NCBI GenBank assembly: GCA_030628155.1
Contig: DAOVRL010000001.1
Span: 2,351 to 66,350 of the forward strand
From: Sedimentisphaerales bacterium
GTDB taxonomy: Bacteria; Planctomycetota; Phycisphaerae; Sedimentisphaerales; Anaerobacaceae
Length of the DNA: 64,000 bases
Direction of reading: 5' to 3'
In this document: positions 41,620 through 64,000 of the stretch, one piece after another
Layout of the letters: every line of letters starts with the position of its first letter
Numbering within the stretch: position 1 is the first letter of the stretch
The notes under the pieces: model-generated
The model's input: the letters and a program-made list of their open reading frames with translations, nothing else
What the model was told of the DNA's origin: nothing
Databases searched by the model: none
Program-made: the position numbers and the translations under genes

Positions 41620-41642
41620 AGATTTCGGCTTAGTCACCGCCG

Positions 41643-47890: not shown

Positions 47891-48006
47891 TGGTCTGTCA
47901 AGATCGAATTAGTACCTGTCATTGCGAGGAGGCCGAAGGCCGACACGGCAATCTCAATCCGCTCGAAGACCGGAGATTGCCACGGCCTTTCAGGCCTCGC
48001 AATGAC
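47888..48006. repeat. REP/MITE-like element (leader box TAGTGGTCTGT plus a forward/reverse REP pair forming a long hairpin)
   Basis: GTCATTGCGAGG (47918-47929) pairs with CCTCGCAATGAC (47995-48006). GGCAATCTC (47947-47955) pairs with GAGATTGCC (47973-47981). The leader box contains the dnaE2 stop codon. Confidence 0.8.
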
Positions 48007-48052
48007 GACTCCTCAAATCCTATGCGACAAAGCAGCAGGTAGGGCAAGGAAC

Positions 48053-48901
48053 CTATCTGGCGATTTCTTTGCGCAGCCATTCGATGCTTTGCTCGATCTT
48101 TCCAGGCGCCGCTTCACATTCTATTGACAGCCAACCATCCCAGTCGATTTCCTTGAGCAGCTCGATACAGCCCGCGATGTTCTCGGCGTTGACGCCTTCC
48201 CCGATACCGACGACCGAGCAGGCGATGCCGGTCATCCCGCCGCGGACGGCCTCGGCAAGCTCTTCGCTGACGTCCTTGATGTGGCAGTGCGAGACCTTGT
48301 CGCGAAACCGCTTTAGAAACTTGACCGGGTCCTGCCCCGCGATAAAGACATTGCCCGTGTCCATGTTCATCTTCAAATACGGCGAGTCATAGAAGCCGAG
48401 AATCTGCTCCATACTATCCGGATCGGTTGTGTAGGGTCCGTGCGGCTCGACATTGATAATGATGTCATATTCCTGGGCCCAATCGAGCACGACGCGGTAG
48501 TACTGCTTCATAAGGACCATCACCTCGTCGTCGGTGTAGCCTTCGGGCTTGCGTCCGCCGTCTGTCGTGTCCACGCAGGGGCAACCGAGGCCCTTGGCGA
48601 ACTGGATGGTCCGAACCGTGTAGCCGATCCCGCGGTGCTGACCCTCGGGGCAGGACATTGGATAGGCAGCGTCGAGCTGGGAGGCCTTCAGACCCATTGA
48701 GTCCAGGTAGCTCTTGAGCTTGAGCGGGTCGGAATGAAGGGGGATATGAGGATTATAGCCCAAGGCCTGGACGAAGTAGTCCCCGTCGATGGTGCCGAAC
48801 TCGACGTACTCCATATCGTGGTCCTTGGCAACCTGGCAGGGAACGTCATAAGAGACGTCGAAGTGGCGCCAATTGTCAACGTGCATGCTTAGCTTTATCA
48901 T
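48053..48901 (-). CDS. xylose-isomerase-like TIM-barrel protein (sugar phosphate isomerase/epimerase family)
   Basis: AAAGGAG RBS. VEFGTIDG ... IINVEPHG ... NMDTGNVFIAGQD ... HCHIKD ... SIECE is a metal-ligand pattern typical of AP_endonuc_2. Confidence 0.85.
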   Translation of the reverse strand: MIKLSMHVDNWRHFDVSYDVPCQVAKDHDMEYVEFGTIDGDYFVQALGYNPHIPLHSDPLKLKSYLDSMGLKASQLDAAYPMSCPEGQHRGIGYTVRTIQFAKGLGCPCVDTTDGGRKPEGYTDDEVMVLMKQYYRVVLDWAQEYDIIINVEPHGPYTTDPDSMEQILGFYDSPYLKMNMDTGNVFIAGQDPVKFLKRFRDKVSHCHIKDVSEELAEAVRGGMTGIACSVVGIGEGVNAENIAGCIELLKEIDWDGWLSIECEAAPGKIEQSIEWLRKEIAR

Positions 48902-48917
48902 AATTTAACTCCTTTTC

Positions 48918-49114
48918 TCTGGTTGTTTATGAGTTCTGCAAAATTGCAGGTTAGGCCTATATTGTTGAAGAAAATCTTTTTTATGATTTTCTTCAATAAT
49001 CACCTAACCACTTATGGCATAATATATTGCTGATAAAAAGAAAAAATCAAAAAACGATTTTTTCTTTTCTAAGTAGGCCTAACCTGCAATTTTGCAGAAG
49101 CCTTCTGGTTGTTT
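48918..49114. mobile_element. MITE-like AT-rich structured element with 25-bp perfect terminal inverted repeats and 11-bp flanking direct repeats
   Basis: TIRs: TTCTGCAAAATTGCAGGTTAGGCCT (48934-48958) and AGGCCTAACCTGCAATTTTGCAGAA (49075-49099). Direct repeats TCTGGTTGTTT at 48918-48928 and 49104-49114. Two internal perfect or near-perfect hairpins. Confidence 0.55.
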
Positions 49115-49154
49115 GCAAGTAACATATTCATTGCTTTGTCTCAAGGGCCGGCGC

Positions 49155-49631
49155 TTAGCCCGGTTCGGTGATCTCAGCTTTTTTGATCCTGTGTGTATCG
49201 TGACAATCGGTGCAGACAGGCGGGGGCTTCGCTGCGGCAGCTTTCAGGCCGGAGATGTCGTGCCTTTTGTGACACTTCAGGCACATTGCATCGACCCGGC
49301 CGCGCTCAAAAGTAACATCGGGCGGGGTTGCGCCGATATCTTCATCGTTCGCGTGCCCGGCGCTGACGCCGTGGCAGCCAACACACGTGATTCTTGCCTT
49401 GAGATGCGCCTTACTCAATTCTTCTTTGACAAACGTGATATGACAGACGTAGCAGGCGGCGTTGGCGCCGAGGGGATTGGTTTCGTCAAATTGCGCAGCG
49501 GCCTCGGCTTCGGCGCCGATGCTGTTATCAGGGGGCGGACAACACGAGCACATACAGGCCAGGGTTGCCAATCCGGCGGTAACGATGACAAGCAGAGCCA
49601 GCCTTATACTCTTTCCCAGTTCCTGAGCCAT
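49155..49631 (-). CDS. tetraheme c-type cytochrome, membrane-anchored or lipoprotein
   Basis: Four CxxCH motifs (CYVCH, CVGCH, CLKCH, CTDCH) and an N-terminal hydrophobic anchor with a Cys cluster. ATG 49631 overlaps the upstream AKR gene by 28 nt. Confidence 0.8.
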   Translation of the reverse strand: MAQELGKSIRLALLVIVTAGLATLACMCSCCPPPDNSIGAEAEAAAQFDETNPLGANAACYVCHITFVKEELSKAHLKARITCVGCHGVSAGHANDEDIGATPPDVTFERGRVDAMCLKCHKRHDISGLKAAAAKPPPVCTDCHDTHRIKKAEITEPG

Positions 49632-50683
49632 TGATACTCCGGGGTAAGGTTGGCGTGGTAGTTCTCGGTGCACGTGCGGATGGCGTCTTTGTCTTTGGAA
49701 GTCAGCGGCTTGTCGCGCTCATACGAGCCCTTCACGTTTTCTTCGAGCTGGGCGGTGGTATTGACGCCCGGGATGACGGCCGAGATGCGAGGCTCGGCAA
49801 GCATTTTTTTGACCAGAACGTGGGCATTCTTGTCCACCTTGCCCTTTATCTCACGGGGTTTTATGCCGAAGGTGGTCCCCGCGCCGAACGGCTTTAGGCC
49901 GATCACGCCCACGTCCTTTTCTCTGGCCAGCTTGAGCAGACTGTCACCGCCGAGCTCCTCGGTAAGAAAAAGGTACGGGAAGATGATCACCGAGAACCGG
50001 GGGTACTCGTTGAGGATGCGGCGGAAGAGCTTTGGGTTGTGGGCCGAGATGCCGAGATAGCGAATCTTGCCCTGCCGATGCACCTTGTCGAAGGCCTCAA
50101 CCACCATATCGAGGATTCTGTGGCTGACCATAAGCATAGTGGGAATGGCCGTCTGGCCCTCGCCCCAGGTCGCACCGACCGGTCGCCAGATGTCGAGCAT
50201 GTCCGTCTTGTAGTGTTTGAGTCGCCCGTCGATTTCGCTCAGGAAACGCTTCTTCGAGAGTTCCTTTTCATATTCTTCGGTGAGCTTCTGGGGCCAGGAT
50301 GCAAACCCGATGTACCAGTTCTTGCGTTTGCCGCGGAGGGCCTGGCCGTATTGCTCGCACTCGGCGACGATGTTGGTATCGAGATAATTTATGCCGAGCT
50401 CGGCGGCACGTTCGAGCACCTCCACGCGGTTCTCCAGGCCGAGCGAGCCGTGGCCGCCCAGACTGACTTCGGAGATCATCAGTTTTGTCTTGCCCAGCCG
50501 GCGATAGCCCATTTTAGCGTTGTAGTTGAGTATCTTCGACGTATCGGCCTTCGATTTCTTTGCCGACTTGCCGGTTTTCGGTGCGGCACGTACCTGTCCG
50601 GCCAACGTGCCGGCGATTGTCCCTGCTGCCGCAAGAGACGTCTTGCGAATGAATTTCCGCCTGGAGAGCTTGTCCGTATTCAT
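49604..50683 (-). CDS. aldo/keto reductase with a twin-arginine (Tat) signal peptide
   Basis: MNTDKLSRRKFIRKTSLAAAGTIAGTLAGQVRA, then the AKR N-terminus MGYRRLGKTKLMISEVSLGG ... INYLDTN. The track start at 50824 is upstream of the Tat motif, so ATG 50683 is preferred. Confidence 0.85.
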   Translation of the reverse strand: MNTDKLSRRKFIRKTSLAAAGTIAGTLAGQVRAAPKTGKSAKKSKADTSKILNYNAKMGYRRLGKTKLMISEVSLGGHGSLGLENRVEVLERAAELGINYLDTNIVAECEQYGQALRGKRKNWYIGFASWPQKLTEEYEKELSKKRFLSEIDGRLKHYKTDMLDIWRPVGATWGEGQTAIPTMLMVSHRILDMVVEAFDKVHRQGKIRYLGISAHNPKLFRRILNEYPRFSVIIFPYLFLTEELGGDSLLKLAREKDVGVIGLKPFGAGTTFGIKPREIKGKVDKNAHVLVKKMLAEPRISAVIPGVNTTAQLEENVKGSYERDKPLTSKDKDAIRTCTENYHANLTPEYQWLRNWERV

Positions 50684-50903
50684 AGGCTTTTCCTTTTCAA
50701 ACTGCCTCGCACGGTTAAAATAGCCTTCGGCCCAATCGTACTGCTGAGCGAATCGGCCTTTATTATAGCCGGTTGCGCCTGTAAATTCTACGAAAAGATT
50801 TGACACTATTGTTACGCGCGCCAATAATCGACTCAGGATGTATCTAAACCGCCGGTAACGATAAGGCGTTTTGAAAGAACGCCCTTTCTAACGGAGGCCA
50901 ACT

Positions 50904-51608
50904 ATGCAAGCGAGTCTGCTTATATCGGTCTTTGCAGCCGCCTTAGCTGCCGGGGGACTTTCATCTGTCGCCCAGGCCGGGCAGGATTTTTCGCCGAAAC
51001 CGCAGGAGCAGCAACTACCTGACGCTATGCACTCGGCGATGAAGGAGCTGCCGAGCATTACGGTCGGGCTACGCGACGCCGATTTGATTGGAAGTGATAA
51101 TCGCGCTCTGCAGGCGGCGGTTGACTACATCGCCGGCTTGGGAGGCGGCATCGTGGAAATCGCTCAGGGGCAATACACGATGTATGATTCGCTGCATCTG
51201 CGCTCGAATGTCACTGTCCGGGGCGCCAAAGGCAAAACGATACTGCGCAAGGCGGACGGAGCCCTATCGCCCCTGGCCCTTGACGGCGATTTCGGTGAGC
51301 AGCAGATAACGGTGGCAAATCCGGCCGGCTTTGCGGTTGGCTATGGCGTGGCGATTTGGGACGACCGTGCCGCGGGATTTCATACTACGGTTGCGCGCAT
51401 CACCGGACGCAATGGCAATACCTTTGCGATCGATAAACCTCTGATGGCCGACTGTATGCTAAATAATAAGGCTAAGGCGGCTACGGTTTTTCCTGTTGTC
51501 AGCAGCTATAACATCAAGGGGACAAGGATTGAGAATCTCACTATCGACGGCAATACAATAGAGGCGAAAACACCCGTTGACGACCGGCGCGTACGGAAAA
51601 CAAAATAG
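50904..51608 (+). CDS. right-handed parallel beta-helix (pectate-lyase-fold) protein, apparently C-terminally truncated
   Basis: Signal peptide. ALQAAVDYIAGLGGGIVEIAQGQYTMYDSLHLRSNVTVRGAKGKTIL ... IENLTIDGN, then an abrupt unrelated tail and stop. Confidence 0.65.
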   Translation: MQASLLISVFAAALAAGGLSSVAQAGQDFSPKPQEQQLPDAMHSAMKELPSITVGLRDADLIGSDNRALQAAVDYIAGLGGGIVEIAQGQYTMYDSLHLRSNVTVRGAKGKTILRKADGALSPLALDGDFGEQQITVANPAGFAVGYGVAIWDDRAAGFHTTVARITGRNGNTFAIDKPLMADCMLNNKAKAATVFPVVSSYNIKGTRIENLTIDGNTIEAKTPVDDRRVRKTK

Positions 51609-51656
51609 AGTACGGCTTTTTCTCACGAAGGAACAAGATTGAACAAGGAGAAGAAA

Positions 51657-52985
51657 ATGAATTCAGTTAATCGTCGAGATTTTTTGAAGGGCTCGATCGG
51701 TGTTGCCGCCACAGTCGCCGTTCTGCCTCAAAGGCCAAGCTTCGCGGCAAATGAGAAAGTCATCGTTGGTGTGATGGGACTTGGCGGCCGAGGGACATAT
51801 CTGGCGACAAGCTTCGCGCGAAGGGCCGATACGGACGTCGCGTATCTTTGCGATGCGGACAGCAGACGCTTTGCCCGGGCAAAAAAGGCGACCGAGGCAG
51901 TCCAGACGAGAAAACCGAAGTTGGTGCAGGATTTTCGACGGATTCTCGATGATAAGGACGTGGATGTGCTCATCAATGCGACACCCGACCACTGGCACGC
52001 CCTTGGGGCCATTATGGCCTGTCAGGCAGGCAAAGACGTCTATGTGGAAAAGCCTCTCGCCCATAATATCTTCGAAGGCAGGAAAATGGTCGAGGCGGCG
52101 CGAAAGTACAAGAGGGTCGTTCAGGTGGGAATGCAAAGCCGCAGTGCACCTTATATGGCCAACGCCGTCGAATATGTGCGATCCGGCAAGCTCGGCGAGG
52201 TTCACCTTGTCCGGGTCTTTAATATGATGAAGCATTCGGCGATGAACAAAGGGCCCGAGCAGCCTGTGCCGGACGGCTTTGACTACGATATGTGGTGCGG
52301 CCCGGCCCCCAAGCTCCCGTATAATCCGAGCCGGCGCTGGTTGAACTTTTGGGAGTATAGCTGCGGACCCATCGCCGGTGACGCAGTTCACCAGTTGGAC
52401 CTGGCGCGATATTTGACCGGCGACAAACCTTATCCGGATACCGTCTGTCACGCAGGCGGCATCAATGCCCTGCCCGACGGCAGGAACACCCCGGACACCC
52501 AGTTGGCAGTGTATGAGTACGGCAAATTCACGCTCCAGTTTGAAGCGACCCTCTGGACGCCTTATATTAAGAAAATACCTCAGACTATCCGCAATTCCGA
52601 TGCCTTTCCAGACTGGCCGTTCAGCAGCACCAGGATCGAAGTATTCGGCACCGAGGGCTTTATGTACCTCGGCAGACACGGCGGCGGTTGGCAGGCCTAC
52701 GACGCAGGCGGAAAGATCGTTCATTCGCAATTCGGCCGCCAGGGCGATAAGGAGCATCAGGATAATTTCATCGACTGTATTCGCACGCGCAAGAGGCCCA
52801 ACGCGGATGTCGAGCAGGGCCACTACTCCGTGTTGCTGTCTCACCTGGCCAATATATCGTACAGGGTCGGTAATCAAAAGCTTACGTTCGACCCAAGAAC
52901 CGAATCCTTCGTCGATGCCCCCGAGGCCGACAGGTATCTAAAGCGCCCGTACAGACAGCCGTGGGTAGTACCGGACAAAGTATAG
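51657..52985 (+). CDS. Gfo/Idh/MocA family oxidoreductase with a Tat signal peptide
   Basis: GGAG RBS precedes ATG 51657. MNSVNRRDFLKGSIGVAATVAV, then a Rossmann motif (VGVMGLGGRG) and the EKP motif (DVYVEKPLAHN). Confidence 0.9.
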   Translation: MNSVNRRDFLKGSIGVAATVAVLPQRPSFAANEKVIVGVMGLGGRGTYLATSFARRADTDVAYLCDADSRRFARAKKATEAVQTRKPKLVQDFRRILDDKDVDVLINATPDHWHALGAIMACQAGKDVYVEKPLAHNIFEGRKMVEAARKYKRVVQVGMQSRSAPYMANAVEYVRSGKLGEVHLVRVFNMMKHSAMNKGPEQPVPDGFDYDMWCGPAPKLPYNPSRRWLNFWEYSCGPIAGDAVHQLDLARYLTGDKPYPDTVCHAGGINALPDGRNTPDTQLAVYEYGKFTLQFEATLWTPYIKKIPQTIRNSDAFPDWPFSSTRIEVFGTEGFMYLGRHGGGWQAYDAGGKIVHSQFGRQGDKEHQDNFIDCIRTRKRPNADVEQGHYSVLLSHLANISYRVGNQKLTFDPRTESFVDAPEADRYLKRPYRQPWVVPDKV

Positions 52986-53046
52986 GGACCGGTGAAGCCA
53001 AACGCAAACGGCCGGAAGTGCTGCCGAAGACAGGCAATCGATCAGA

Positions 53047-54168
53047 TTAGTCTGCGGTGTCGGGCAACGTGACGTTCTTGCCGCCGGGGCCGGGCTCGAA
53101 GATATGCACTTTTTCCGGGTCGATCCGTATTTTCGCGCCGTCGCCGGGCTTGACGTCAATGTGTGGATCGATACTGACGATGAATCTGTCCCCGGCGCCG
53201 GTCCTTAGGTGAACGTCCGTTCTGTTTCCCAACGGCTCAACTACGCTGACGACCGCTGAAATTGAGCCGCCAGACTGCTTCGAGGGCAGACTGAGTGAAA
53301 GGTTCTCCGGTCTTATTCCCAGGACCATTTCTCTGTTACGATAAGCCGCCGTCAGCGTTTTCAAGCGCCGGCCGAGCGTGATGGTGTCATTGCCGATCAC
53401 AAAGGAAACTGCATCGTTTTGAAAGTCCAGGCGGCCGGTAAAAAAGTTCATAGCCGGTGTGCCGAGAAAACCGGCTACAAATCTGTTGATTGGCCGTTCA
53501 TATACGCCCAGAGGTTCGCCTGTCTGCTGAGCTGCGCCGTCAACCATAACGCAGATTTGGTCTCCCAGGGTCATAGCTTCGGCCTGGTCGTGCGTAACAT
53601 AAATGCACGCGGTTTGGAGCCTGTGGTGCAGGGCCTTGATCTCGGCCCGCGTGCTTATGCGCAGCGCGGCATCGAGATTGCTCAAAGGCTCGTCGAAGAG
53701 AAATACTTTTGGGCTGCGTACAATCGCCCTGCCGAGCGCGACGCGCTGTCGCTGGCCGCCGGAAAGCGCCTGCGGTTTTCGCGCCAGGAGCTGCTCGATG
53801 GCGAGCAGGCCGGCGACCCGCCCGATGCGTTTGTTTATCTCCGCCGCCGACAGCCTTCTCATTGTGAGCGCAAATGCCAGATTCTGATAGACGGTCATAT
53901 GCGGGTACAGGGCGTAGTTCTGGAAGACCATAGCCACATCTCGCCGTCTCGCGGGCAGATCGTTGACCAGTGTATCCCCGATGTATATGTTTCCGGCGGT
54001 AGGTCTTTCCAGGCCTGCGATTACTCTTAGAGTTGTGGTTTTGCCGCAGCCGCTTGGGCCGACAATGACCATAAACTCGTGGTCGGCAACATCCAGGCTC
54101 AAACGTGAGACCGCAGTTACGCCGCCGTCAAAAACTTTGGTAACATCTTCCAACAAAACGCGAGCCAC
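53047..54168 (-). CDS. ABC transporter ATP-binding protein, MalK/UgpC/MsmX type with a C-terminal TOBE-like domain
   Basis: Walker A GPSGCGKTT, Q-loop, signature LSGGQRQRVALGRA, Walker B FLFDEPLSNLD, and a regulatory C-terminal beta-domain. GTG start 21 nt downstream of the P1 stop. Confidence 0.9.
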   Translation of the reverse strand: MARVLLEDVTKVFDGGVTAVSRLSLDVADHEFMVIVGPSGCGKTTTLRVIAGLERPTAGNIYIGDTLVNDLPARRRDVAMVFQNYALYPHMTVYQNLAFALTMRRLSAAEINKRIGRVAGLLAIEQLLARKPQALSGGQRQRVALGRAIVRSPKVFLFDEPLSNLDAALRISTRAEIKALHHRLQTACIYVTHDQAEAMTLGDQICVMVDGAAQQTGEPLGVYERPINRFVAGFLGTPAMNFFTGRLDFQNDAVSFVIGNDTITLGRRLKTLTAAYRNREMVLGIRPENLSLSLPSKQSGGSISAVVSVVEPLGNRTDVHLRTGAGDRFIVSIDPHIDVKPGDGAKIRIDPEKVHIFEPGPGGKNVTLPDTAD

Positions 54169-54189
54169 GATTGCTATCCCAAAGAAAGA

Positions 54190-55971
54190 TCAGAAAATAT
54201 TTCGTCTCATTCGGCATTTCGCGCGCCAGGCAAAAAGCAGGCCCAGGAACATATAGCCGAGCATACAAACCAACATCCAAAGCATTGATTCCCAAAAAGG
54301 CAAAGAACCGGGTCCAATCCAATAATAAGTACCTAATCGTCCCCTTTTGGTGGTAGCATCCATTATAGAGACGGCGTGGACGAAGGGATTGACATCCATA
54401 AACACTTGAAAGAAATCATGCCAGTCGCGGGTTATCGCCGCAACCAGAGCTATCAGCAGAGGCAGTAATGCCCAGACAGTCGCCGCCAGGGCAAAATTCA
54501 TTATTACCGCCGTCGTGGTGCGCTTGAAGCGGCTGCTAAAATATAGCCCCGTGCCCGAAAGAAACACCACTATCCACGCGACCAGAATACCCATCTGAAC
54601 CGACGCAATCGGATGAATAATACCGGCGAGGGTAAAGACAATGATATGGCCAAACAGAAGACACCAAATGGGCAGACAACGGCGCAAAATGCCTGCGAAC
54701 TTGCCGAATAGTATCTGCCAATCGCTCAAGGTGGTCGTCAGCAGCAAATGCCAGGAGCGTGCCTCCTTTTCCGAAGTGATGCACGTGGCGGGAAGGATAA
54801 CCGTAAAGAGCATTCCAAGGGCGATAAAAATGACGACGTAGACGATGTGGGTTTCATCGTCGTTCAACATACGCTCGTCGGCACATAAGGCGTAGGTTAC
54901 GAGCAGGATAATCAGGCCGACGGCAATAGTAATCAGAACGGCGATTTTGCGTCGTCCTAACACGGAGGACCTTAGCTCTTTCCAGAGAACAGGAGGTCCT
55001 TTAACTCGCCTGGGCGCAGGGGCAAAATCCCGGCGCTCGGATGAGGAGGGGAGGGCTTCTTTATCAGTGCGGCGTTTCCGGGCCGATACGCCCAACTGCC
55101 CGGTCGCCTGACGCAGCGCAACCCTGCGGACCAAAAGCACCGAAAGAAACAGCAGCAAGCCCGATGCGCCCAACATCACACCACAGTGAACAGGCCAGTA
55201 GAACGCGAATCTGCCCATCATCGCACGTGGCTCCATCATCAGCATCGTGTTAAAGAAAAAAGTAAAATACGGATTCGGAAAAGTCAAAATGCTAAAGAAA
55301 GTACCCTGAGACATCACCCGATGCAACATGTAGGCGGCCAGGAACGGCAGCAAGAGGAAAATCGCCCCGAGCGTCAATGTAGTCAAAATAATGACAACGT
55401 AGGCCCTTCGGCTAAATATGGAAAAGAACAAGCTGAGCAGCCCGACAAAGACTACGGCAGTAACAGTTATACAGAGACTCGATATGACGTAAATCCAAGG
55501 CACACCGCCGAAGACTCGAACGATGGCCAGGAGCGGCAGGCTTATAGCCAGCAGGAGCAGCAATTGCAGCAGCTTGCTGAAGAGTTTTCCTGTGACGATC
55601 TGAAAGCTGTTGATCGGCGTGGTCATCAGCAGGCCGAGCGTGCGGTTGTAAATCTCATCACTGATTGAAGTGCTGAGCATTATCACGCCGACAATCTGGA
55701 TGGCAATGAACTGAAACCACACGATATATGCGGTTATCCCTTTTCCGGCCTCGGCCATTCGAGAGATTTGATATAGTCCGGTGCCTCCACGTGGTACATA
55801 CACGAGCCACGTCAGTACCAGAAAGATGGTCAACAGGGCCAGGTAGGTAAATCGAAGGACGTAGTTTCTGCGCCGCCGGCTGGAGACGCGAAGCTCCTTC
55901 TCGAAGATGGGCCCCGTCAGCCAGGAAAGGCTCAAGAATCGCCGGGCGAAATTTAACAAAGCGGTAGTCAT
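54190..55971 (-). CDS. internally duplicated ABC-2 (NosY/GldF-like) permease, paralog P1
   Basis: 593 aa. Both halves carry the amphipathic P(I/V)(F/L).KELR start and the E..E...(T/W)...L(L/M).T(T/P) ... GK motif. Confidence 0.8.
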   Translation of the reverse strand: MTTALLNFARRFLSLSWLTGPIFEKELRVSSRRRRNYVLRFTYLALLTIFLVLTWLVYVPRGGTGLYQISRMAEAGKGITAYIVWFQFIAIQIVGVIMLSTSISDEIYNRTLGLLMTTPINSFQIVTGKLFSKLLQLLLLLAISLPLLAIVRVFGGVPWIYVISSLCITVTAVVFVGLLSLFFSIFSRRAYVVIILTTLTLGAIFLLLPFLAAYMLHRVMSQGTFFSILTFPNPYFTFFFNTMLMMEPRAMMGRFAFYWPVHCGVMLGASGLLLFLSVLLVRRVALRQATGQLGVSARKRRTDKEALPSSSERRDFAPAPRRVKGPPVLWKELRSSVLGRRKIAVLITIAVGLIILLVTYALCADERMLNDDETHIVYVVIFIALGMLFTVILPATCITSEKEARSWHLLLTTTLSDWQILFGKFAGILRRCLPIWCLLFGHIIVFTLAGIIHPIASVQMGILVAWIVVFLSGTGLYFSSRFKRTTTAVIMNFALAATVWALLPLLIALVAAITRDWHDFFQVFMDVNPFVHAVSIMDATTKRGRLGTYYWIGPGSLPFWESMLWMLVCMLGYMFLGLLFAWRAKCRMRRNIF

Positions 55972-56103
55972 AAAGGATGCCTCGGTCCGATTATTCGAGG
56001 AGATTATAAGACGAATCCCATCAAATAATATATGCCCAGCTTCAATTTGCGGGCCTTGTGATATTTTTTCACCATTTTGCGCAAGATTTCAGTTGCACGC
56101 AAA

Positions 56104-57897
56104 CTAAAAGACATTGCGCCTAAATCGGCATTTCGCGCGCCAGGCGAAAAGCAGGCCAAGGAACATATAGCCGAGCATACAAAAGAGCATCCAAATCGTT
56201 GCCTCCGAGACATCCCTGGCGCCGACTTCAAGCCAATCGTAGCGTCTCAATCCCCCATTGCGTGCGGTGGCAGCAATAATGACGACGGCGTGGACAAACG
56301 GATTCGTGTCCCAATAAAGCTCGCAGAACGCATGGAAATCGCGAAAATCGCGGACGATTGTCCCAATCAGAGTAATTACGAAGGGCAGTAGTGCCCAGAT
56401 CAGCGCGGCCACGCCGAAGTTCATCATAACGGCTGTCGTAGTACGCTTGAAGCGAACGCTGAAATAAAGACCGGTGCCCGAAAGAAACACCACTATCCAG
56501 GCGACCAGGATGCCCATCTGAATGGTGGCCAGCGGGTGAATAACACCTGCGAGGGTGAACAGCATGATATGGCCGAACAGAAGGGCCCAAACAGGCAGAC
56601 AACGACGCAAAACGCCTGCAAACTTCCCAAAGAGGATCTGCCGGTCGCTCAAAGTGGTCGCCAGCAGCAATGGCCAGGAACGCGATTCCTTCTCCGAAGT
56701 GATGCACGTGGCCGGAAGAATAATAGTAAACAAGATTCCCAGCGCCAAAAAGATCACAGTGTACAAGATGTGTACCCATTCGTCATCCAGCGCATTTTCG
56801 TCGGCACAAAAGCCATAGGTTACGAACAGAAAGATCAGTCCGATGGCAATGGTGATCAGAACGGCAATTTTGCGCCGTCCGAAGACGGGCGATCTCAACT
56901 CTTTCCAGAGAACAGCAGGCCCTTTAACCCGTCTGGGCGGAGGCGCAAAATCCCGGTGCTCGGATGCGGTGGAGACGGCCTTGGTGTTGGAGCGCCGTCG
57001 CCGTCCGCGCGAGGATGTGCCCAACTCTCCGATGGCCTGGCGCAGCGCCACCCTGCGCACCATAAGGACGGAAAGAAGCAGCAGCAAGGCCGAGGCGACC
57101 AGCATGATAACGCAGTGCACAGCCCAGGACAAAGCAGGCCAACCGCCCATACGAGGCGACATCATCCTGTCGGTATCGAAGGCCAGCAGAACATAGGGAT
57201 TAGCATACGAAACAGCTGAGAAGAATTGGCTTTCGGAGACAACAGAATGAAGGAACATAGCGGCAAGAATGGGCAGGAGGGCAAAGAGTGTGCCGAGGGT
57301 AAGGATAGTCAAGATAATAACTACGTATGCCCTTCGGTTGAATATGGAGAAAAACATGCTCACTGAGCCGACAAAAAGGACCGTGGTAAGGGTTACACAA
57401 AGGCCGGAGACGATGTAACCCCACGGCACACCGCCGAAGACACGAACGATGGCCAATATCGGCAGACTTATCGCCAGCAGTAGAATCAACTGCAGCAGCT
57501 TGCTGAAGAGCTTGCCTATAACAATCTGAAAGCTGTTGATCGGCGTGGTCATCAGCAGGCCGAGCGTGCAGCTATAAATCTCATCGCTGATGGACGTGCT
57601 GAGCATTATCCCGGCGACAAACTGGATGGCAATGAACTGGAACCAAATGATATATGCGATTATGCCTTTGCCGGCCTCGGCCATTCGAGAGATTTGATAT
57701 AGTCCGGTCCCGCCACGTGGTACATACGCCAGCCACGTCAGTACCAGAAAGATGGTCAACAGGGCAAGGTAGGTAAATCGAAGGACGTAGTTTCTTCGCC
57801 GCCGGCTCGAGACGCGAAGCTCCTTCTCGAAGATCGGACCCGTCAGCCAGGAAAGGCTCAAGAGCTTAAGCACGAAGTTGTAGAGACTGACGACCAT
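56104..57897 (-). CDS. internally duplicated ABC-2 permease, paralog P2
   Basis: 597 aa, collinear with P1 and identical at roughly three quarters of positions by eye. Confidence 0.8.
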   Translation of the reverse strand: MVVSLYNFVLKLLSLSWLTGPIFEKELRVSSRRRRNYVLRFTYLALLTIFLVLTWLAYVPRGGTGLYQISRMAEAGKGIIAYIIWFQFIAIQFVAGIMLSTSISDEIYSCTLGLLMTTPINSFQIVIGKLFSKLLQLILLLAISLPILAIVRVFGGVPWGYIVSGLCVTLTTVLFVGSVSMFFSIFNRRAYVVIILTILTLGTLFALLPILAAMFLHSVVSESQFFSAVSYANPYVLLAFDTDRMMSPRMGGWPALSWAVHCVIMLVASALLLLLSVLMVRRVALRQAIGELGTSSRGRRRRSNTKAVSTASEHRDFAPPPRRVKGPAVLWKELRSPVFGRRKIAVLITIAIGLIFLFVTYGFCADENALDDEWVHILYTVIFLALGILFTIILPATCITSEKESRSWPLLLATTLSDRQILFGKFAGVLRRCLPVWALLFGHIMLFTLAGVIHPLATIQMGILVAWIVVFLSGTGLYFSVRFKRTTTAVMMNFGVAALIWALLPFVITLIGTIVRDFRDFHAFCELYWDTNPFVHAVVIIAATARNGGLRRYDWLEVGARDVSEATIWMLFCMLGYMFLGLLFAWRAKCRFRRNVF

Positions 57898-57915
57898 ATT
57901 TATCCGACATAATAA

Positions 57916-59592
57916 TCAAAAAATACTGCGCCTCAAGCGGCATCTCGCACGCTGCGCGGCCAGGAGACCGACGCCAAGGCAAACACACGTGGGAATCAGC
58001 GTGACAGCTATCGGGATCAGCCACGTCAAAACCGCACCGCGGCCTGCCTGACGGTAGAACGGTGCAAGGAAGATGCTATACAACAGAGTGGTAAATACCC
58101 TGCGGCCAAACAACTCAACACCAATGTATATGCCTACAGTCGAAGCCACCGCAGCATTAGTGCTCTTCAAACGAACGCCGAAATACAAACCAAGACCAAT
58201 CACAAAAACGACGGTCCCTGCCAGACCGATCACATAAATGATTATGTAAAGCACTGGAAAGAAAGCCATACCTGCAAATAGCATGATGCCAAGATAAAGC
58301 ACAACCTGCAATAGAATCAGCAGCAGTAGTAACGGCACGTTTCTGCGGAATGCCGCGATGGCTTTGCCTCGCACTATTTCCGTATCGTCCAACGGCGTTG
58401 CCAGCAGTATCGGCCAGGTCCCGGCCTCCTTCTCGGCCGTGATACTCGCCGCCGAGAGGACCGCCAGACGAACAAAAACAATCAACGAAAAGCCCATCAT
58501 AAGGTAGTAGTACAGACTGCTGCCGACGGGGCCTCGGCCCCTTCTAAAACCAAATAAGGCAAATACCGAAGGAACAAAACCCAGTAAAACCACACCTGTC
58601 AGCACGGCGTACAAAATGAAGCTCGCCTTTCTGCGCCCGAAGAAGGGTTTGCGCATTTCTTTCCAGACAATAGGCGCCCCCTCGACGCGCTTTATGGGGA
58701 AGTAGGTATCCGGTTTTGCGGTCCCGCTGAAGGCGCGGCTCAGAGCGATCTTGCGGAAGCGCCAGACCGCCAGAGACACCACACCGACCGTTGCCGAGAG
58801 CATAATCGCACAGTGCACAGGCCACGATGAAATGACTCCCGCAGTCTTACCGAGCGAAAGCACCGCATGCAGCGCCCCGAATGGATTGAGCACGTACAGT
58901 ATTACCTCGGCAAACGTGCTGCCGAATAGGCCCCACGCCGAAAGCAGACCGATCAAACCGGAACAAGCACCGAACACAAGCAGGTATCCGGTCATGATTG
59001 TCAGGACAACGGTGTATGCGTGGCGGGCAGTCATCGACAAGAGCAGGCTGAGCGCACCTGCAAAAACCGCAGCAGTCAAGGTTATACACAGCCCGGAGAC
59101 AACGTGACCCCAGGGCACGCCTCCAAAGACGCGGATAATCGCCAGCAGCGGCAAGCTGATCGCCAGCAGTAACGTCACCTGCAGCAGCCCGCTCAATAGC
59201 TTGCCCATCACAATTTGCAGACTATTGATGGGCGTGGTCATCAGCACGCTGAGTGTACGCTGACGGATTTCGCCGCCGATGGAGGTACTGAGCAGAACGA
59301 TTGCCATCAACTGAGCGGCGACAAACTGAAACCAGATTATCGCCGTGATGACACGCCTGCCCGCCTCGCCCATCCGCGACGCCCGAAATGACGCCGAGCC
59401 CGGACCGCCCAATCTAACCGTAATAAGCCATACGTACAAGATGAACAGGCACAGCAACGCGATGTACGCCGAACGCAGGGCGTAGCTCCTGCGCCGCCGG
59501 CTGGCAACACGCAGCTCTTTGTCGAATATCGGCCCCGTCAGCCACCAAAGGCCCCCAAGCACCGAAACGCCGTCTGCTAAAGCAGTATTCAT
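57916..59592 (-). CDS. internally duplicated ABC-2 permease, paralog P3
   Basis: The track ORF starts at GTG 59607. ATG 59592 gives MNTALADG, parallel to the P5 start MNTALTSF. Confidence 0.8.
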   Translation of the reverse strand: MNTALADGVSVLGGLWWLTGPIFDKELRVASRRRRSYALRSAYIALLCLFILYVWLITVRLGGPGSASFRASRMGEAGRRVITAIIWFQFVAAQLMAIVLLSTSIGGEIRQRTLSVLMTTPINSLQIVMGKLLSGLLQVTLLLAISLPLLAIIRVFGGVPWGHVVSGLCITLTAAVFAGALSLLLSMTARHAYTVVLTIMTGYLLVFGACSGLIGLLSAWGLFGSTFAEVILYVLNPFGALHAVLSLGKTAGVISSWPVHCAIMLSATVGVVSLAVWRFRKIALSRAFSGTAKPDTYFPIKRVEGAPIVWKEMRKPFFGRRKASFILYAVLTGVVLLGFVPSVFALFGFRRGRGPVGSSLYYYLMMGFSLIVFVRLAVLSAASITAEKEAGTWPILLATPLDDTEIVRGKAIAAFRRNVPLLLLLILLQVVLYLGIMLFAGMAFFPVLYIIIYVIGLAGTVVFVIGLGLYFGVRLKSTNAAVASTVGIYIGVELFGRRVFTTLLYSIFLAPFYRQAGRGAVLTWLIPIAVTLIPTCVCLGVGLLAAQRARCRLRRSIF

Positions 59593-59610
59593 AATCAGGT
59601 TATGCACATA

Positions 59611-61281
59611 TCAAAAGATATTACGCCGAACGCGGCACTTAGCGCGCCAGGCAAACAACAGGCCCACTCCCGTTTGAACGCAGACGGGAATAAGGAAGGC
59701 AAGCAGGCCTGCGCCGGGCCCGGGACCTCCGAGCACGAAAAACACGCCTGAGAAAGAACGCAGCGCGCCACAGCAAAGAAATGGAAATCCCATACAGACA
59801 CCGAGCGTCACGGCCACCGCCGCACTGGTCCTTTTCATGCGAGCGCTGCAGTACAGACCAAGGCCACTGACGAAGATGGCCGAACCCGCCAGCGTGGCCA
59901 GGTAACCGATTACATAGAAGTCCGGAAGCTCTGGTCCTGATTCGCTGAATGCGGTGGTCAAATAGAAAGCGAGCAGCAATAGAATAATGAAGAACAGCAT
60001 CGGCAGGTTTCTGCGGAATGCCGCGATACCTTTGCCTCGCACTATCTCCCAATCGTCTAACGGCGTTGCCAGGAGTATGGGCCAGGTCCGCGACTCCTTT
60101 TCACGAGTGATGCTCGCTGCCGAGAGGACCGCCATACGTACTATTAGGAGCACCATCAGTATGTTCGCAAGCATCAACGTCAAGACGGTGCCGAATCCAA
60201 GATCAAATGCACACGAGACAATCGCGGCCACAACTATGACGCCCAGCGCGATGTAAGCGACAATGTTTGCCGTGTTGTCTTGAAAGAAGGGCTTGCGCAT
60301 CTCTTTCCAGACAACGGGTGATCCCTCGAGGCGTTTTATTTGGCCGTCTTGGCGAGTGGGCGCCTTACTTTTTTTCCGAGCGGACCGTTTCTCGGCGCCG
60401 CCAAAGGCCGCCGTCAACGCGATCCCGCGCACACGCCCGATGGCCAGGCACAGCACGCCGACGCTCGCAGAGAGCATAATCGCACAGTGCAGCGGCCAGG
60501 AAGAGAAAACTCCCACGTTTCTCGGAATCGAGAGCATTACGTAACTGCGGATAAGCATAGCCCCCAAGGGATTGACCAGGAAGTCTATCGCCTGGGCAAA
60601 CCTGCTGCTAAATACACCTTGTCTCGACAGCAATCCGACCAGGCCCGGAACAACAGCGAAGGCCATCACATATCCAATCACGATTACCAGAACAACATTG
60701 TAAGCATGGCGGAAAGTCATCGACAAAAGCAGGCTAAGTGAGCCTAAAAAAACGGCGGCGGTCAACGTTATACACAGGCTCGAAACAACATAATCCCACG
60801 GTACGCCTCCAAAGACGCGGATAATCGCCAGCAGGGGCAGGCTGATTCCCAATAGCAGGGTCGTCTGGAGCAGCTTGCTCAGGAGCTTGCCCATAACGAT
60901 TTGCAGGCTGTTGATGGGCGTGGTCATCAGCACACCGAGTGTGCGCTGCCGAATTTCCTCGCCGATGGATGTGCTGAGCATAACAACTGCTATCAACTGA
61001 GCGGCGACAAACTGAAACCATATTATCGTGGTGATGACATGCTTACCGACTTCGGGCATGCGCGAGGCCTGAAAAGCAGGCGAACCGGAACCGGGAAATG
61101 CGACGCTAATAAGCCACACGTATATAATGAAGAGACCCAGCAGTACGATGTACGCGGAACGCAAGGCGTAGTTTCGGCGTCTGCGGCTGGAGACTCGCAG
61201 CTCTTTTTCGAAGATTGGTCCGGTCAGCCAGGAGAGGCCCGGAAGCAATGAAAGAACATTTGTCAAAGCACCACTCATCAT
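59611..61281 (-). CDS. internally duplicated ABC-2 permease, paralog P4
   Basis: The track ORF starts at TTG 61293, with ATGs at 61281 and 61278. Closest to P3. Confidence 0.8.
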   Translation of the reverse strand: MMSGALTNVLSLLPGLSWLTGPIFEKELRVSSRRRRNYALRSAYIVLLGLFIIYVWLISVAFPGSGSPAFQASRMPEVGKHVITTIIWFQFVAAQLIAVVMLSTSIGEEIRQRTLGVLMTTPINSLQIVMGKLLSKLLQTTLLLGISLPLLAIIRVFGGVPWDYVVSSLCITLTAAVFLGSLSLLLSMTFRHAYNVVLVIVIGYVMAFAVVPGLVGLLSRQGVFSSRFAQAIDFLVNPLGAMLIRSYVMLSIPRNVGVFSSWPLHCAIMLSASVGVLCLAIGRVRGIALTAAFGGAEKRSARKKSKAPTRQDGQIKRLEGSPVVWKEMRKPFFQDNTANIVAYIALGVIVVAAIVSCAFDLGFGTVLTLMLANILMVLLIVRMAVLSAASITREKESRTWPILLATPLDDWEIVRGKGIAAFRRNLPMLFFIILLLLAFYLTTAFSESGPELPDFYVIGYLATLAGSAIFVSGLGLYCSARMKRTSAAVAVTLGVCMGFPFLCCGALRSFSGVFFVLGGPGPGAGLLAFLIPVCVQTGVGLLFAWRAKCRVRRNIF

Positions 61282-61296
61282 CAGTTCAAGCAAACA

Positions 61297-63123
61297 TCAG
61301 AAGATATTACGCCGAAAGCGACACTTCGCCCGCCAGGCAAAAAGAAATCCGAAGAAGACGTAGACCAGCATACTGATTGCCAGGACAGCGGTTGTGGACC
61401 CGATATCGAGGTTTCCGTCCAACCAGTTGTATCTGAGGCTGCCCAGGTCCGCCCGCGCGTTATACCTGCCGCTGGCCCCGCTTATAATAACCCCGGCCTG
61501 CACCGCAGGATTAGCGAACACGCAAGACTGGGCAATGTACTTGTTGCGACTGACCGCTCCTATCAGTCCGAGCACCGATGGGACAATCACCCAAAGCACA
61601 AAGGCCAGGCCAAACGCAGTCACCACCGCCGAGGTCGTCCGCCTAAAACGCGAGCTGAAATACAGACCGGAACACGTCAGGAACACCACCAGCCAAATAA
61701 CAAGCATAGACAGATGCACCATCGCAATTACGTGGATATATCCCACGAGAACAAACACTACAACGTGTCCGGCCAACAGGAGCCAGACCGGCAGGCATCG
61801 GCGAAATACGGCAACCGCCTTTCCACTAAGTATCCGCCAGTCGTCCATGGACGTCGCCAGCAAAATAGGCCAGGCCCGAGACTCCTTCTCCACTGTGATA
61901 CTGCTCGCAGAAAGAACTATGTGAAATATCATAGCGATCGATACGAACACCACAGTGTAAGAGATATGAGTGAAATTCTCATCGAGGTACCCTTCGTGTG
62001 CCCAGACGGCATAAGTCGCCAGCAGAGCAACAATAGTCACCACAAGCCCAATGAGGCTGTTCCTTCCTTCGACACCCCGAATCAGCGGAGCCCTCAGATC
62101 TTTCCACAGGACCGGTGAGCCCCTTACGCGCCTGACCACGCCGACGGCATCTTCGCTTTGTGCAGGCTCCAAGGACGACTTCCCTCCTCTTCGGCGGCGT
62201 TTGCGCTTTGAAGTATGCTCGAGCTGTCCGACCACCTGCCGCAGCGCCACCTTTCGCACGATACCCGCGCACAGGGCCATCAACAACACCGACAAACCTA
62301 ACATAAATGCACAATGCAGCGGCCAATAGAACCAAGCCACGCCGGCCGGTAAGCCCGGAGACATCAATCCCGCAGTGTTGCGAGAAATCGCGTAAAAAGG
62401 GCTGAAATGTGACAGAACATGCCAGAAAACCGGATAAGAACCCATTTGAGGGCCCCGTCCGAAGATCATCGGCGCCATCAGCACACCGCCGATTATTGTC
62501 GGGAGCAAGCCAAATAAAAAGCCAACGGTGACAGTCGTTTTGATGATGACGACATACGCCCGGCGGTTGTTTATCGAGAAGAATAAACTCAGCGTCCCGG
62601 TGAAGATTGCAGCCGTCAGCGTTATACAAAGGCTCGACAGAACGTAACCCCACGCCACCCCCCCGAAGACGCGGACAATCGCCAGCAGCGGCAGGCTGAT
62701 GGCCAGCAGCAATATCAACTGGAGCAGCTTGCTGCAGACCTTTCCCATGACTATCTGAAAGCCGTTGATCGGGGTCGTCATAAGCAGGCCGAGCGTGCGG
62801 TTGTAGATTTCGTCGCTGATGGACGTACTGAGCATAACAATGGCGATCAACTGCGTCGCGGCGAACTGAAATCCGACTATTGTGCTGATGATGATCTTGC
62901 CGGCCACGGCCATTCGGGACTTCTGAAATGTCGTGGACACTTGAGGCTCGACCACGCTGAGCCAGACAATGACAACAAAGACAGTCAAGAGAATCACGTA
63001 CATAAACCTCAGGAGGTAGTTCCGCTTTCTACGGGCCGAGACGCGGAGCTCCTTGCCAAAGAGTGGGCCGGTCAGCCGGGCGGGGTTGAACAATTTCCAG
63101 AAGCTGGTCAATGCCGTATTCAT
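61297..63123 (-). CDS. internally duplicated ABC-2 permease, paralog P5
   Basis: 608 aa with the same two-half architecture and the longest Arg-rich inter-half linker (KRKRRRRGGK). Confidence 0.8.
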   Translation of the reverse strand: MNTALTSFWKLFNPARLTGPLFGKELRVSARRKRNYLLRFMYVILLTVFVVIVWLSVVEPQVSTTFQKSRMAVAGKIIISTIVGFQFAATQLIAIVMLSTSISDEIYNRTLGLLMTTPINGFQIVMGKVCSKLLQLILLLAISLPLLAIVRVFGGVAWGYVLSSLCITLTAAIFTGTLSLFFSINNRRAYVVIIKTTVTVGFLFGLLPTIIGGVLMAPMIFGRGPQMGSYPVFWHVLSHFSPFYAISRNTAGLMSPGLPAGVAWFYWPLHCAFMLGLSVLLMALCAGIVRKVALRQVVGQLEHTSKRKRRRRGGKSSLEPAQSEDAVGVVRRVRGSPVLWKDLRAPLIRGVEGRNSLIGLVVTIVALLATYAVWAHEGYLDENFTHISYTVVFVSIAMIFHIVLSASSITVEKESRAWPILLATSMDDWRILSGKAVAVFRRCLPVWLLLAGHVVVFVLVGYIHVIAMVHLSMLVIWLVVFLTCSGLYFSSRFRRTTSAVVTAFGLAFVLWVIVPSVLGLIGAVSRNKYIAQSCVFANPAVQAGVIISGASGRYNARADLGSLRYNWLDGNLDIGSTTAVLAISMLVYVFFGFLFAWRAKCRFRRNIF

Positions 63124-63178
63124 AAGCGTTTGTCTTGCCGGGCATTATCGTCGGGGCAGAGTGACTTACCGGCCGCAC

Positions 63179-64000
63179 TTAATGAACTATACCCTTGGTC
63201 AACTGCAGGAACGCATCATCAAGTTTGAGCTGTTCGGGCTGGAGGAAAGTAACATCCAGGCCGCCGTTAACAAGCGTCCGGGCGATAATACCGTCGCCTT
63301 CCTGGTCGTCGCCGAAGGTCACGGAGATGTAGTCGTCGATGACCTGAACCTGGCGTATCTGGGGCAGTGCGGAGAGCAGCTCGACGGCTTTATCCTGATT
63401 ATTGGCCACCTGTACGCGGACCTTGCTTTCAATTCCAAGGCGCGGGCGAATTTCTTCCAAGGTCCCGCTAAAGACCATGCGCCCGTGCTCGATAATGCCG
63501 ACGTGGTCGCAGATTTCCTCGAGCTCGCTGAGGATATGGCTGGAGATCATTATGGTCTTTCCCATGCGCTTGAGCTCGCGGAGCAGCTCCCTGATTTCGA
63601 TCCTCGCACGTGGGTCGAGGCCGCTGGCCGGCTCATCCAGGATCAGCACCTTGGGATCGTGGATGAGCACCCGTGCCAAGCCGAGCCGTTGCTGCATACC
63701 GCGTGAGAGGCTGTCAACTGTGGCGCTTCGCTTGGACTGCAGGTCGGTCAGCTCGAGGACGCCGTCCACGATGGACTTGCGTTTTTTGCGTTCTATTGCA
63801 AAGGCGGCCGCGAAGAACTCAAGGTACTCAAAGACCTTGAGGTCGTCGTAAACGCCCATAAAATCGGGCATATAGCCGACCAGTTTGCGGACCTTTTTGC
63901 CCTTCTTTCTGACATCCAGGCCGTCGATGAAGGCAGTCCCGTGCGTGGGCTCCAGGAGCGTGACGAGAATGCGCATAGTGGTGGTTTTGCCGGCCCCGTT
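63179..64000 (-). CDS. ABC transporter ATP-binding protein (ABC-2 / CcmA-NatA type with a DUF4162-like C-terminal domain), 5' end beyond the window
   Basis: Walker A NGAGKTTT sits at the window edge. Signature LSRGMQQRLGLAR and Walker B LILDEPASGLDP. The listed M at 63976 is internal. Confidence 0.9.
   Translation of the reverse strand, partial: NGAGKTTTMRILVTLLEPTHGTAFIDGLDVRKKGKKVRKLVGYMPDFMGVYDDLKVFEYLEFFAAAFAIERKKRKSIVDGVLELTDLQSKRSATVDSLSRGMQQRLGLARVLIHDPKVLILDEPASGLDPRARIEIRELLRELKRMGKTIMISSHILSELEEICDHVGIIEHGRMVFSGTLEEIRPRLGIESKVRVQVANNQDKAVELLSALPQIRQVQVIDDYISVTFGDDQEGDGIIARTLVNGGLDVTFLQPEQLKLDDAFLQLTKGIVH

Follow-up and report, generated by a model that had tools for sequence, protein, structure and literature searches.

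The described systems nearest to the locus analysed here are Rv1217c-Rv1218c of Mycobacterium tuberculosis by architecture, NosY and GldF by protein family, and GldA-GldF-GldG by list of parts. The locus is a tandem array of five ATP-binding cassette (ABC) permease genes of the ABC-2 type, P1 to P5, lying beside the ATPase gene NBD1 in a 64,000-nt stretch of DNA from a Sedimentisphaerales bacterium (assembly GCA_030628155.1, contig DAOVRL010000001.1, forward-strand positions 2,351 to 66,350), which we call the window. In Rv1217c, two transmembrane domains (TMDs) are fused in a single polypeptide that works with an Rv1218c homodimer, and in the type V fold the TMDs contact the nucleotide-binding domains (NBDs) through a connecting helix before transmembrane segments TM1 and TM7 and a coupling helix between TM2 and TM3 and between TM8 and TM9 (PMC11406275). 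The known role of this pair (PDB 8k1p, 8k1m and 8k1n) is drug (rifampicin) efflux (PMC11406275). On balance, we lean towards reading the array as a set of alternative fused membrane modules that share one NBD1 motor within an envelope machine.

The array resembles Rv1217c-Rv1218c in having fused TMDs of ~550 aa, a separate ATPase gene and a predicted type V fold with connecting and coupling helices. The ATPase product forms a homodimer in the mycobacterial system, and an NBD1 homodimer is predicted for the array from gene adjacency and docking motifs. Unlike the array, Rv1217c-Rv1218c has one permease gene and no MoxR, VWA or X737 partners (described below), and no sequence similarity between the two is detectable. 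A fused ABC-2 permease is not new in itself because Rv1217c, whose structure with Rv1218c has been solved, already is one; in this respect an earlier reading of this DNA, hereafter the original prediction, went too far in implying an unprecedented layout. The original prediction knew of no characterised system with this layout; database and literature searches gave no equivalent, and we found no description of this combination in the literature on ABC-2, MoxR-BatA, GldG and multi-copper-maturation systems of Planctomycetes and Phycisphaerae.

Other systems share parts of the locus. NosFY(D) (PDB 7o0y and 7znq), a type V module that serves a periplasmic partner rather than a classical solute, belongs like the array to PF12679 and gives the best per-half fold match (TM-score ~0.6); NosY differs from P1-P5 in being a single 6-TM domain that homodimerises. 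GldA-GldF-GldG of Bacteroidota likewise combines a GldA-like ATPase with a permease that the array halves weakly resemble (GldF) and a protein whose domain X737 weakly matches (GldG; X737 also weakly matches DUF4350), but GldF is single-domain and single-copy, and the topology of X737 is unlike that of GldG. The cargo and role of GldAFG are likewise without an established answer (PMC9127263). The genes upstream of the array correspond to Bat (aerotolerance) operons, with MoxR (AAA_3), DUF58 and BatA_N+VWA in canonical order. We know of no Bat operon described with an ABC-2 exporter array, and literature searches on Bat or aerotolerance operons with ABC transporters found no such association. 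The MsmX/MsiK multitask ATPases and the group II energy-coupling factor (ECF) modules serve several membrane modules with one ATPase (PMC7658222), as we propose for NBD1; these are importers with TMD genes scattered in the genome, whereas the array consists of tandem type V exporter TMDs beside the ATPase. A MalK-like gene at the end of the array itself belongs to the MsmX/UgpC/MalK family. Finally, Wzm/Wzt, KpsMT and TarGH have the type V fold, and a glycan cluster without an exporter recurrently adjoins the array; unlike the array, they have single-domain TMDs of PF01061, ATPases of other subfamilies and no MoxR/VWA module.

Five fused permeases in one array

The locus was read in the window, and the completion of NBD1 and the genes upstream of it were taken from locus L005, beyond the window end. 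The array comprises the following features.

53047-54168, minus strand: MalK/UgpC/MsmX-type ABC ATPase of the carbohydrate uptake transporter 1 (CUT1) type, with an OB_MalK + TOBE_2 tail, 373 aa
54190-55971, minus strand: P1, fused ABC-2 (type V) permease, class E, 6+6 TM, 593 aa; PF12679 and PF12698
55972-56103, minus strand: P2-P1 spacer, AT-rich, 132 nt
56104-57897, minus strand: P2, fused ABC-2 permease, class E, paralogue of P1, 597 aa
57916-59607, minus strand: P3, fused ABC-2 permease, class A (short class), 563 aa; 558 aa in the database gene call
59611-61293, minus strand: P4, fused ABC-2 permease, class A, paralogue of P3, 560 aa; 551 aa in the database gene call
61297-63123, minus strand: P5, fused ABC-2 permease, class D, 608 aa
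63179-64000, minus strand: NBD1, DrrA/GldA-type ABC-2 ATPase, cut by the window end; full length 308 aa (L005)

The gene order, common minus strand and gap sizes given by the original prediction agreed with the list of open reading frames (ORFs), and the peptide motifs it had quoted were all found in P1. From the MalK-like gene through P1, P2, P3, P4 and P5 to NBD1 the intergenic gaps are 21, 132, 18, 3, 3 and 55 nt, and the MalK-like gene, 21 nt past P1, is the last of the transcription unit in the window. Promoter and terminator scans of 52500-64000, the 132-nt spacer included, gave nothing above chance, the spacer showed no significant RNA structure (z=-1.39), and Rfam and tRNA scans of the whole window were empty. 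We also observed a strongly positive AT skew (0.20-0.31) over the permease array (54001-62000), which probably arises because hydrophobic membrane proteins encoded on the minus strand use T-rich codons.

P1-P5 had been described as five paralogous, internally duplicated permeases of the NosY/GldF type, each supplying a full pair of TMDs, and our comparisons bore out both statements. As whole proteins, all five passed the gathering score of PF12679 ABC2_membrane_2 (35-61 against 27.2 bits) with two stretches each, P4 being the top scorer (61 bits). When the halves were scanned separately, PF12679 was matched at E<=5.5e-4 by nine of the ten and its cutoff was passed by four; the N half of P1 alone matched only the sister family PF12730. 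BLASTP identities were 72% for P1/P2, 56% for P3/P4, 50% for P1/P5 and 38-43% for the other pairs (E 1e-88 to 0), a paralogy far beyond chance. The N half of P1 aligned with its C half at 28% identity over 244 aa (E=1.7e-12), and comparison of the N-half and C-half profiles with hhalign gave a probability of 96% (E=3.7e-9). The internal duplication is real, and the trait of Rv1217c, two homologous but non-identical TMDs on one polypeptide, is seen in the permeases. Hydropathy plots showed 11-12 TM peaks per permease (12 in P1), in line with the 6+6 arrangement of the structural model described below. The ratio of non-synonymous to synonymous divergence (dN/dS) was 0.25 for P2 against P1, 0.28 for P3 against P4, 0.17 for P5 against P1 and 0.17-0.32 across all paralogues, indicating that all of them are under purifying selection.

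Relatives of P1 are numerous. More than 2188 were present at 90% clustering, nearly all without a taxon name or assigned to Phycisphaerae/Sedimentisphaerales, and at 50% identity they formed 816 clusters (E<=1e-30), with nearly all of the top 150 of fused length.

The database names of the array permeases derive from NosY, and the JGI label 'multi-copper enzyme maturation' reflects annotation transfer and is not evidence. No nosZ, nosD or nosL was present in the operon, and a neighbouring beta-helix gene (50904-51608) runs on the opposite strand and lacks conservation at other loci. Membership in NosDFY was rejected for want of a nos context. The GldF equivalog model TIGR03518 gave 18-28 bits against a cutoff of 288.5, and gliding or type IX secretion genes were not seen.

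Predicted fold and docking surface

The AlphaFold2 model of P1 was an all-helical 6+6 bundle with a predicted local distance difference test score (pLDDT) of 76 and a predicted template-modelling score of 0.74. In a Foldseek search against the PDB, its top full-length match was Rv1217c (8k1p_A), and the halves taken singly matched NosY chains best (7o0y_D; TM-score 0.52-0.65 on the target). Further matches were ABCA4/7, KpsM, PmtCD and ABCG. Neither P1 nor the family profile found a match when searched by sequence against the PDB, and the fold search alone was informative.

Conservation was then computed over 47 non-redundant permeases. We found that residues 21-40 (GPIFEKELRVSSRRRRNY, just before TM1) were 83-87% conserved, and that residues 101-190, which contain SDEIYNRTLGLLMTTPINSFQIVTGK after TM2, were 68-90% conserved (77-90% up to residue 180). 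Conservation fell to 15-43% in the outward loops 211-260 and 501-560. By their position, the two best-conserved elements would be the connecting helix and the coupling helix of the type V fold. Among the five permeases of the window, identity was 67% in the N-core, 43% in the C-core, 24-36% in the loops and 79% in the last 16 residues (AWRAKCRFRRNIF). A docking surface held in common, beside outer and C-terminal parts that vary, would be expected if the modules use the same ATPase and differ in cargo or partner, and conserved NBD-docking elements fit a shared energiser with interchangeable permease modules.

The cationic tail (F)AWRAKCR(F/M)RRNIF ends every paralogue in all loci (for example window 54193-54240), and in the window's five its conservation far exceeds that of the flanking sequence. 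It might make a cytoplasmic contact or act as a sorting signal.

A conserved upstream operon

The two ATPase genes had been taken as the bounds of the system, and this part of the original prediction did not survive. A conserved operon of at least 13 genes begins outside the window, and the array makes up its distal part. In L005, the genes upstream, on the same strand and tightly spaced, encode a VWA+GATase1-like protein (>753 aa), MoxR, DUF58, BatA_N+VWA (655 aa), X737 and NBD1, with domain scores of 212 bits for AAA_3 (MoxR), 97 for DUF58, 42 for BatA and 66 for VWA_2. The combination of AAA_3, DUF58 and BatA_N+VWA that marks Bat/MoxR-DUF58-VWA operons is thus present; the BatB model scored 17.7 against 350, and BatC/TPR, BatD and BatE/SH3 genes were not seen in the operon. 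The operon recurs in at least 16 Sedimentisphaerales/Phycisphaerae lineages, and all loci with a visible upstream side show the order (MoxR-DUF58-)BatA/VWA, X737, one NBD1, permeases. Its upstream part is conserved in L005, L007, L012-14 and L097-L106, with the order MoxR-DUF58-BatA kept in L007, L012 and L014 and DUF58-BatA seen in L100. Because the array is the tail of a MoxR/DUF58/BatA/X737 operon, the system would be a machine for export or extraction at the cell envelope and not a nutrient transporter.

NBD1 is the sole ABC-2-type ATPase gene in every locus with a visible upstream side. It matched ABC_tran (81 bits) and, weakly, DrrA1-3_C in Pfam, and scored 208 bits with TIGR01188 drrA and 205.5 bits with TIGR03522 GldA (cutoff 402.6), both under cutoff. 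NBD1 and the MalK-like protein are 29% identical over the ABC core alone.

X737, of 737 aa, has no Pfam family. It shows a signal peptide, a TM hairpin in mid-protein, beta-rich regions and an alpha/beta domain, and its C-terminal region is predicted to form a beta-sandwich. Its 553 relatives are all 'hypothetical', and all those with a taxon label are Planctomycetota. Recurrent weak matches in the family, all below threshold, were to DUF4350 (44/52), PF09822 (GldG, ABC_transp_aux; 27/52) and DUF2194 (24/52), with X737 itself at E=0.12 against PF09822. A PDB fold search with the X737 model returned just generic beta-sandwich matches (TM-score ~0.1), and we therefore gave the protein no structural assignment. 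NCBIfam held no family for X737, the VWA/GATase1 protein or DUF58.

Copy number and class content

To place the window among its relatives, gene order was examined in ~20 related loci, mostly by contig look-ups (a contig scan with P1 alone gave 11 loci). The array recurred, with one NBD1 each and a permease count of two to six.

Two permeases: L099 (possibly degraded)
Three permeases: L008, L100, L104
Four permeases: L007, L097, L098, L101, L102, L106
Five permeases: window, L003, L006
Six permeases: L002, L016; at least six in L010

A neighbour-joining (NJ) tree of 52 permeases resolved about five old classes, which are shared across lineages with lineage-specific loss and duplication.

Class A: short, 554-573 aa; P3 and P4 in the window
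Classes B and C: absent from the window
Class D: mostly 604-621 aa, with two shorter ORFs; P5 in the window
Class E: mostly 581-602 aa, always last in the array; P1 and P2 in the window

The class order is D,A,A,E,E in the window, A,C,D,B,E in L003 and A,D,C,B,E,E in L016. Since the class content of the window and L003 differs, the number five was reached by different routes, and the array evolves by birth and death. The five permeases originally counted are thus present in the window, but the number is not fixed elsewhere. In L002 (6149-9868), from a second assembly of the same population or sample, there are two P2 copies that are 98.7% identical (synonymous divergence, dS, 0.023), each trailed by the same 132-nt spacer, giving six permeases. 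Either the extra P2 is a very recent tandem duplication or the repeat was collapsed in the window's assembly, and in view of the extra copy and spacer the true number in the window may be six.

These results bear on two other explanations. In the first, the five permeases and the ATPase would form one fixed hetero-oligomer, as subunits rather than alternatives; their co-transcription with short gaps and the purifying selection on all of them agree with this, but copy number and class content depend on the lineage, L002 has a very recent extra copy and each protein already holds a complete TMD pair, which makes it very unlikely. A fixed five-subunit complex was rejected on the variable copy number. 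In the second, the copies would be redundant recent duplicates or decaying genes without functional differentiation. The L002 duplication, a truncated copy in L104 and the probably degraded L099 cluster point that way; the classes are, however, old and shared across lineages, identities between paralogues are 38-72% with dN/dS of 0.17-0.32, and the variation follows a pattern in which docking elements are conserved while the C half and loops vary, so that we give this explanation scarcely any credence. Pseudogenisation was rejected on the same dN/dS values.

Several further observations were made on individual arrays. Compared with its close relative L006, the window showed dS of 0.16-0.22 in P2-P4 (90-92% aa identity) and a nearly identical NBD1, and dS of 0.43 in P1 (81%) and 0.78 in P5 (73%); this mosaic divergence suggests recombination or allele replacement at the array ends. 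In L009 (10199-11980), on a 2.9-Mb scaffold, a solitary class E fused permease has no NBD1, X737 or other permease within 10 kb and, as in the window, AP_endonuc_2 and DUF72 genes come next; the permease may represent either an orphan module or an artefact of assembly. In L104 (8537-10000) the third permease is a truncated copy of 374 aa with a 340-nt gap behind it, and L099 (5748-9983) holds a 90-aa BatA fragment (with MoxR and DUF58 present), a 421-aa X737 fragment and a 458-aa permease. Both are signs of array decay, and the L099 cluster is likely degraded.

The MalK-like ATPase

The MalK-like protein matched ABC_tran (112 bits), TOBE_2 (50) and OB_MalK (44) in Pfam and passed the NCBIfam UgpC subfamily model NF008653 (436.4 against a cutoff of 432). 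Its gene directly follows the last permease in 11 lineages (window/L006, L003, L016, L017, L099, L100, L101, L103, L104, L106 and, one gene apart, L011), with gaps of 1-21 nt or overlapping stop and start codons. It is missing from five lineages with intact arrays (L007, L008, L097, L098 and L102); L007 and L102 are otherwise syntenic with the window, and L098 closely matches the MalK-bearing L101. We observed that L098 and L101 have in common four permeases (563/560, 610, 587 and 592/597 aa) followed by rmlACDB, and that L101 differs by a block of the MalK-like gene, a zinc-dependent alcohol dehydrogenase (Zn-ADH) gene and a short-chain dehydrogenase/reductase (SDR) gene, in which the MalK stop overlaps the ADH start. 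This trio may be gained or lost as a unit.

A metagenome scan with the MalK-like protein revealed one array-linked relative (L017), one relative of 63% identity (L018) behind a BPD_transp_1 type I permease and 78 generic relatives of ~50% identity with no ABC-2 neighbour. A type I permease adjoins ~10 of these 78 generic loci and is absent from ~68 within flanks of up to 6 kb on each side, so that stand-alone CUT1 ATPases are common. Such ATPases have been described as MsmX-type multitask ATPases (PMC7658222). The array-linked copies were monophyletic in an NJ tree and retain 126 of the 165 sites conserved in generic MalK-like proteins, with most losses conservative. Whether or not the MalK-like gene is present, the last permease has the same docking motifs, and neither the NJ tree nor the motif comparison revealed a permease class or docking-motif variant that tracks its presence. 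As originally noted, no MalF/G-type partner is nearby: jackhmmer found no BPD_transp_1 ORF in the window or in any array-bearing locus.

We considered whether the MalK-like protein is a genuine second component of the array, either an alternative motor or a regulatory or ligand-sensing NBD acting through its OB/TOBE tail, which would imply that an importer-type NBD was recruited to type V exporter TMDs. Its position behind the last permease in 11 lineages, the single clade of the array-linked copies, the arrival of blind look-ups at arrays, its persistence beside arrays whose glycan cluster is distant, the enrichment of its substitutions in the helical subdomain and the lack of a type I permease at these loci speak for such a role. 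On the other hand, five lineages with intact arrays lack it, including the near-match of a MalK-bearing locus, its CUT1 motifs are canonical and its UgpC model score is above cutoff, docking motifs and permease classes are independent of its presence, and the near relative L018 stands behind a BPD_transp_1 permease. We know of no earlier case of a CUT1 NBD working with type V TMDs, and the evidence does not favour such cross-class pairing, in which an importer ATPase would serve exporter permeases, as the likeliest reading. Taken together, we consider a genuine second component unlikely. It is quite unlikely that the whole forms an envelope machine in which Bat-like MoxR/VWA proteins and a GldG/DUF4350-like protein join a swappable exporter of two to six cassettes with the MalK/UgpC ATPase as its second, ligand-sensing motor or regulator. 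A required second motor is improbable because the gene is absent from five lineages, CUT1 features are kept and docking motifs are unchanged; the gene is a frequent yet dispensable neighbour (11 present, 5 absent). It is probably co-transcribed with the array as an accessory rather than the array motor, and its product most likely energises type I sugar importers encoded elsewhere.

The neighbouring glycan cluster

A block of (ADH-SDR-)rmlA(C)DB, glycosyltransferase and methyltransferase genes on the strand of the array lies directly after the MalK-like gene in L003, L016, L017, L101, L103 and L106, and directly after the last permease in L097 and L098. The window contains an orthologous cluster (63-86% identity, same order and strand as the eight-locus block).

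17358-33367, minus strand: surface-glycan cluster encoding Zn-ADH, SDR, rmlA, rmlD, rmlB, a carbamoyltransferase, GT2/GT4-type glycosyltransferases and unknowns

In the window this cluster and the array are separated by a ~19.7-kb segment (33368-53046) with GH38, an SSS transporter, LexA, DnaE, AKR and a GFO_IDH oxidoreductase. No polytopic membrane protein is encoded in the 16-kb cluster, which thus has no exporter of its own.

The array might therefore export the products of the neighbouring rhamnose-glycan genes in the manner of Wzm/Wzt or KpsMT, with one module per lipid-linked glycan, an explanation that concerns the cargo and is compatible with a shared motor. It draws on the recurrent placement of the glycan genes directly downstream on the same strand in eight loci, the exporterless orthologous cluster of the window and the presence of KpsM among the fold matches of P1. 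The invariant partner within the operon is, however, the MoxR/VWA/X737 module and not the glycan genes; glycan genes and array lie apart in L099, L100, L104 and the window; the permeases belong to PF12679 and not to the Wzm/TagG family PF01061, and NBD1 is DrrA/GldA-like and not Wzt-like. Adjacency inside a single class may moreover be inherited gene order. We hold this explanation to be possible if doubtful, and take the glycan neighbour as a lead on the cargo (a lipid-linked glycan), not as evidence.

Three other features of the window were observed. GC content falls to 0.40 at 22001-24000, against ~0.53-0.57 around it, over a GT2 gene (23299-24405) and two ORFs without a Pfam family; such a dip is typical of laterally exchanged, serotype-specific glycan genes. 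The gene at 50904-51608 (plus strand) encodes a 234-aa secreted protein, and the gene at the same position encodes 447 aa in L102 (NosD/Beta_helix) and 464 aa in L007, the latter sharing an N-terminal motif with the window ORF. Given these longer counterparts and the common motif of L007, the window copy appears to have lost its C-terminal part immediately ahead of the GFO_IDH gene. Across 1-16000, GC skew is strongly positive (0.15-0.31).

Discussion

The reading we favour can be set out as follows. P1-P5 would be alternative membrane modules of one type V (ABC-2 fold) ABC exporter or extractor, each functional unit consisting of one fused 12-TM protein, as in Rv1217c, and an NBD1 homodimer, so that the tandem genes could supply two to six interchangeable membrane modules to a single motor. 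We infer that the modules meet NBD1 through a common cytoplasmic docking surface made up of the connecting helix GPIFEKELRVSSRRRRNY, the coupling-helix region SDEIY..TLGLLMTTPINSFQIV.GK, weaker counterparts in the C half and the cationic tail AWRAKCRFRRNIF. Because the C-terminal TMD and the outward loops differ between paralogues, each module may have its own cargo or periplasmic partner. X737 and the MoxR/DUF58/VWA proteins would act with the exporter as an envelope machine, and transport would be outward; our best guess for the cargo is hydrophobic or lipid-linked envelope material, possibly glycans of the rhamnose/glycosyltransferase cluster. The MalK-like protein would be a co-transcribed accessory, a stand-alone CUT1 'multitask' energiser for type I importers elsewhere. 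The shared energiser, put forward by the original prediction as a hypothesis only, is upheld in part: one NBD1 per cluster and the docking elements as the most conserved regions agree with it, and the MalK-like protein is unlikely to be a required second motor.

A number of observations weigh against the favoured reading. All loci come from one bacterial class, and shared ancestry therefore inflates the apparent conservation. The model of P1 is of moderate quality, with pLDDT<50 in both docking regions (17-24 and 112-116). The remaining points concern the MalK-like gene, whose linkage (11 of 16 lineages, gaps of 1-21 nt or overlapping codons) is tighter than that of a casual neighbour. The gene stays with the array where the glycan cluster is separated (window, L099, L100 and L104), contig look-ups of two 65%-identical orthologues, made blind, both landed on arrays, and 7 of 20 lost generic-conserved sites fall in the helical subdomain, residues 100-121.

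Sedimentisphaerales and Phycisphaerae are abundant polysaccharide degraders of anoxic sediments, and their envelope biology is poorly known. The array system is conserved and widespread among them, and the idea of a shared motor is plausible. If true, the shared-energiser principle would extend from importers (MsmX/MsiK and ECF) to ABC-2 exporters, and the array would offer a natural system for studying TMD specificity, with a constant N half and a variable C half. The linkage of an exporter to MoxR-DUF58-VWA-BatA genes also hints at an envelope assembly or export role for the poorly understood Bat-type operons.

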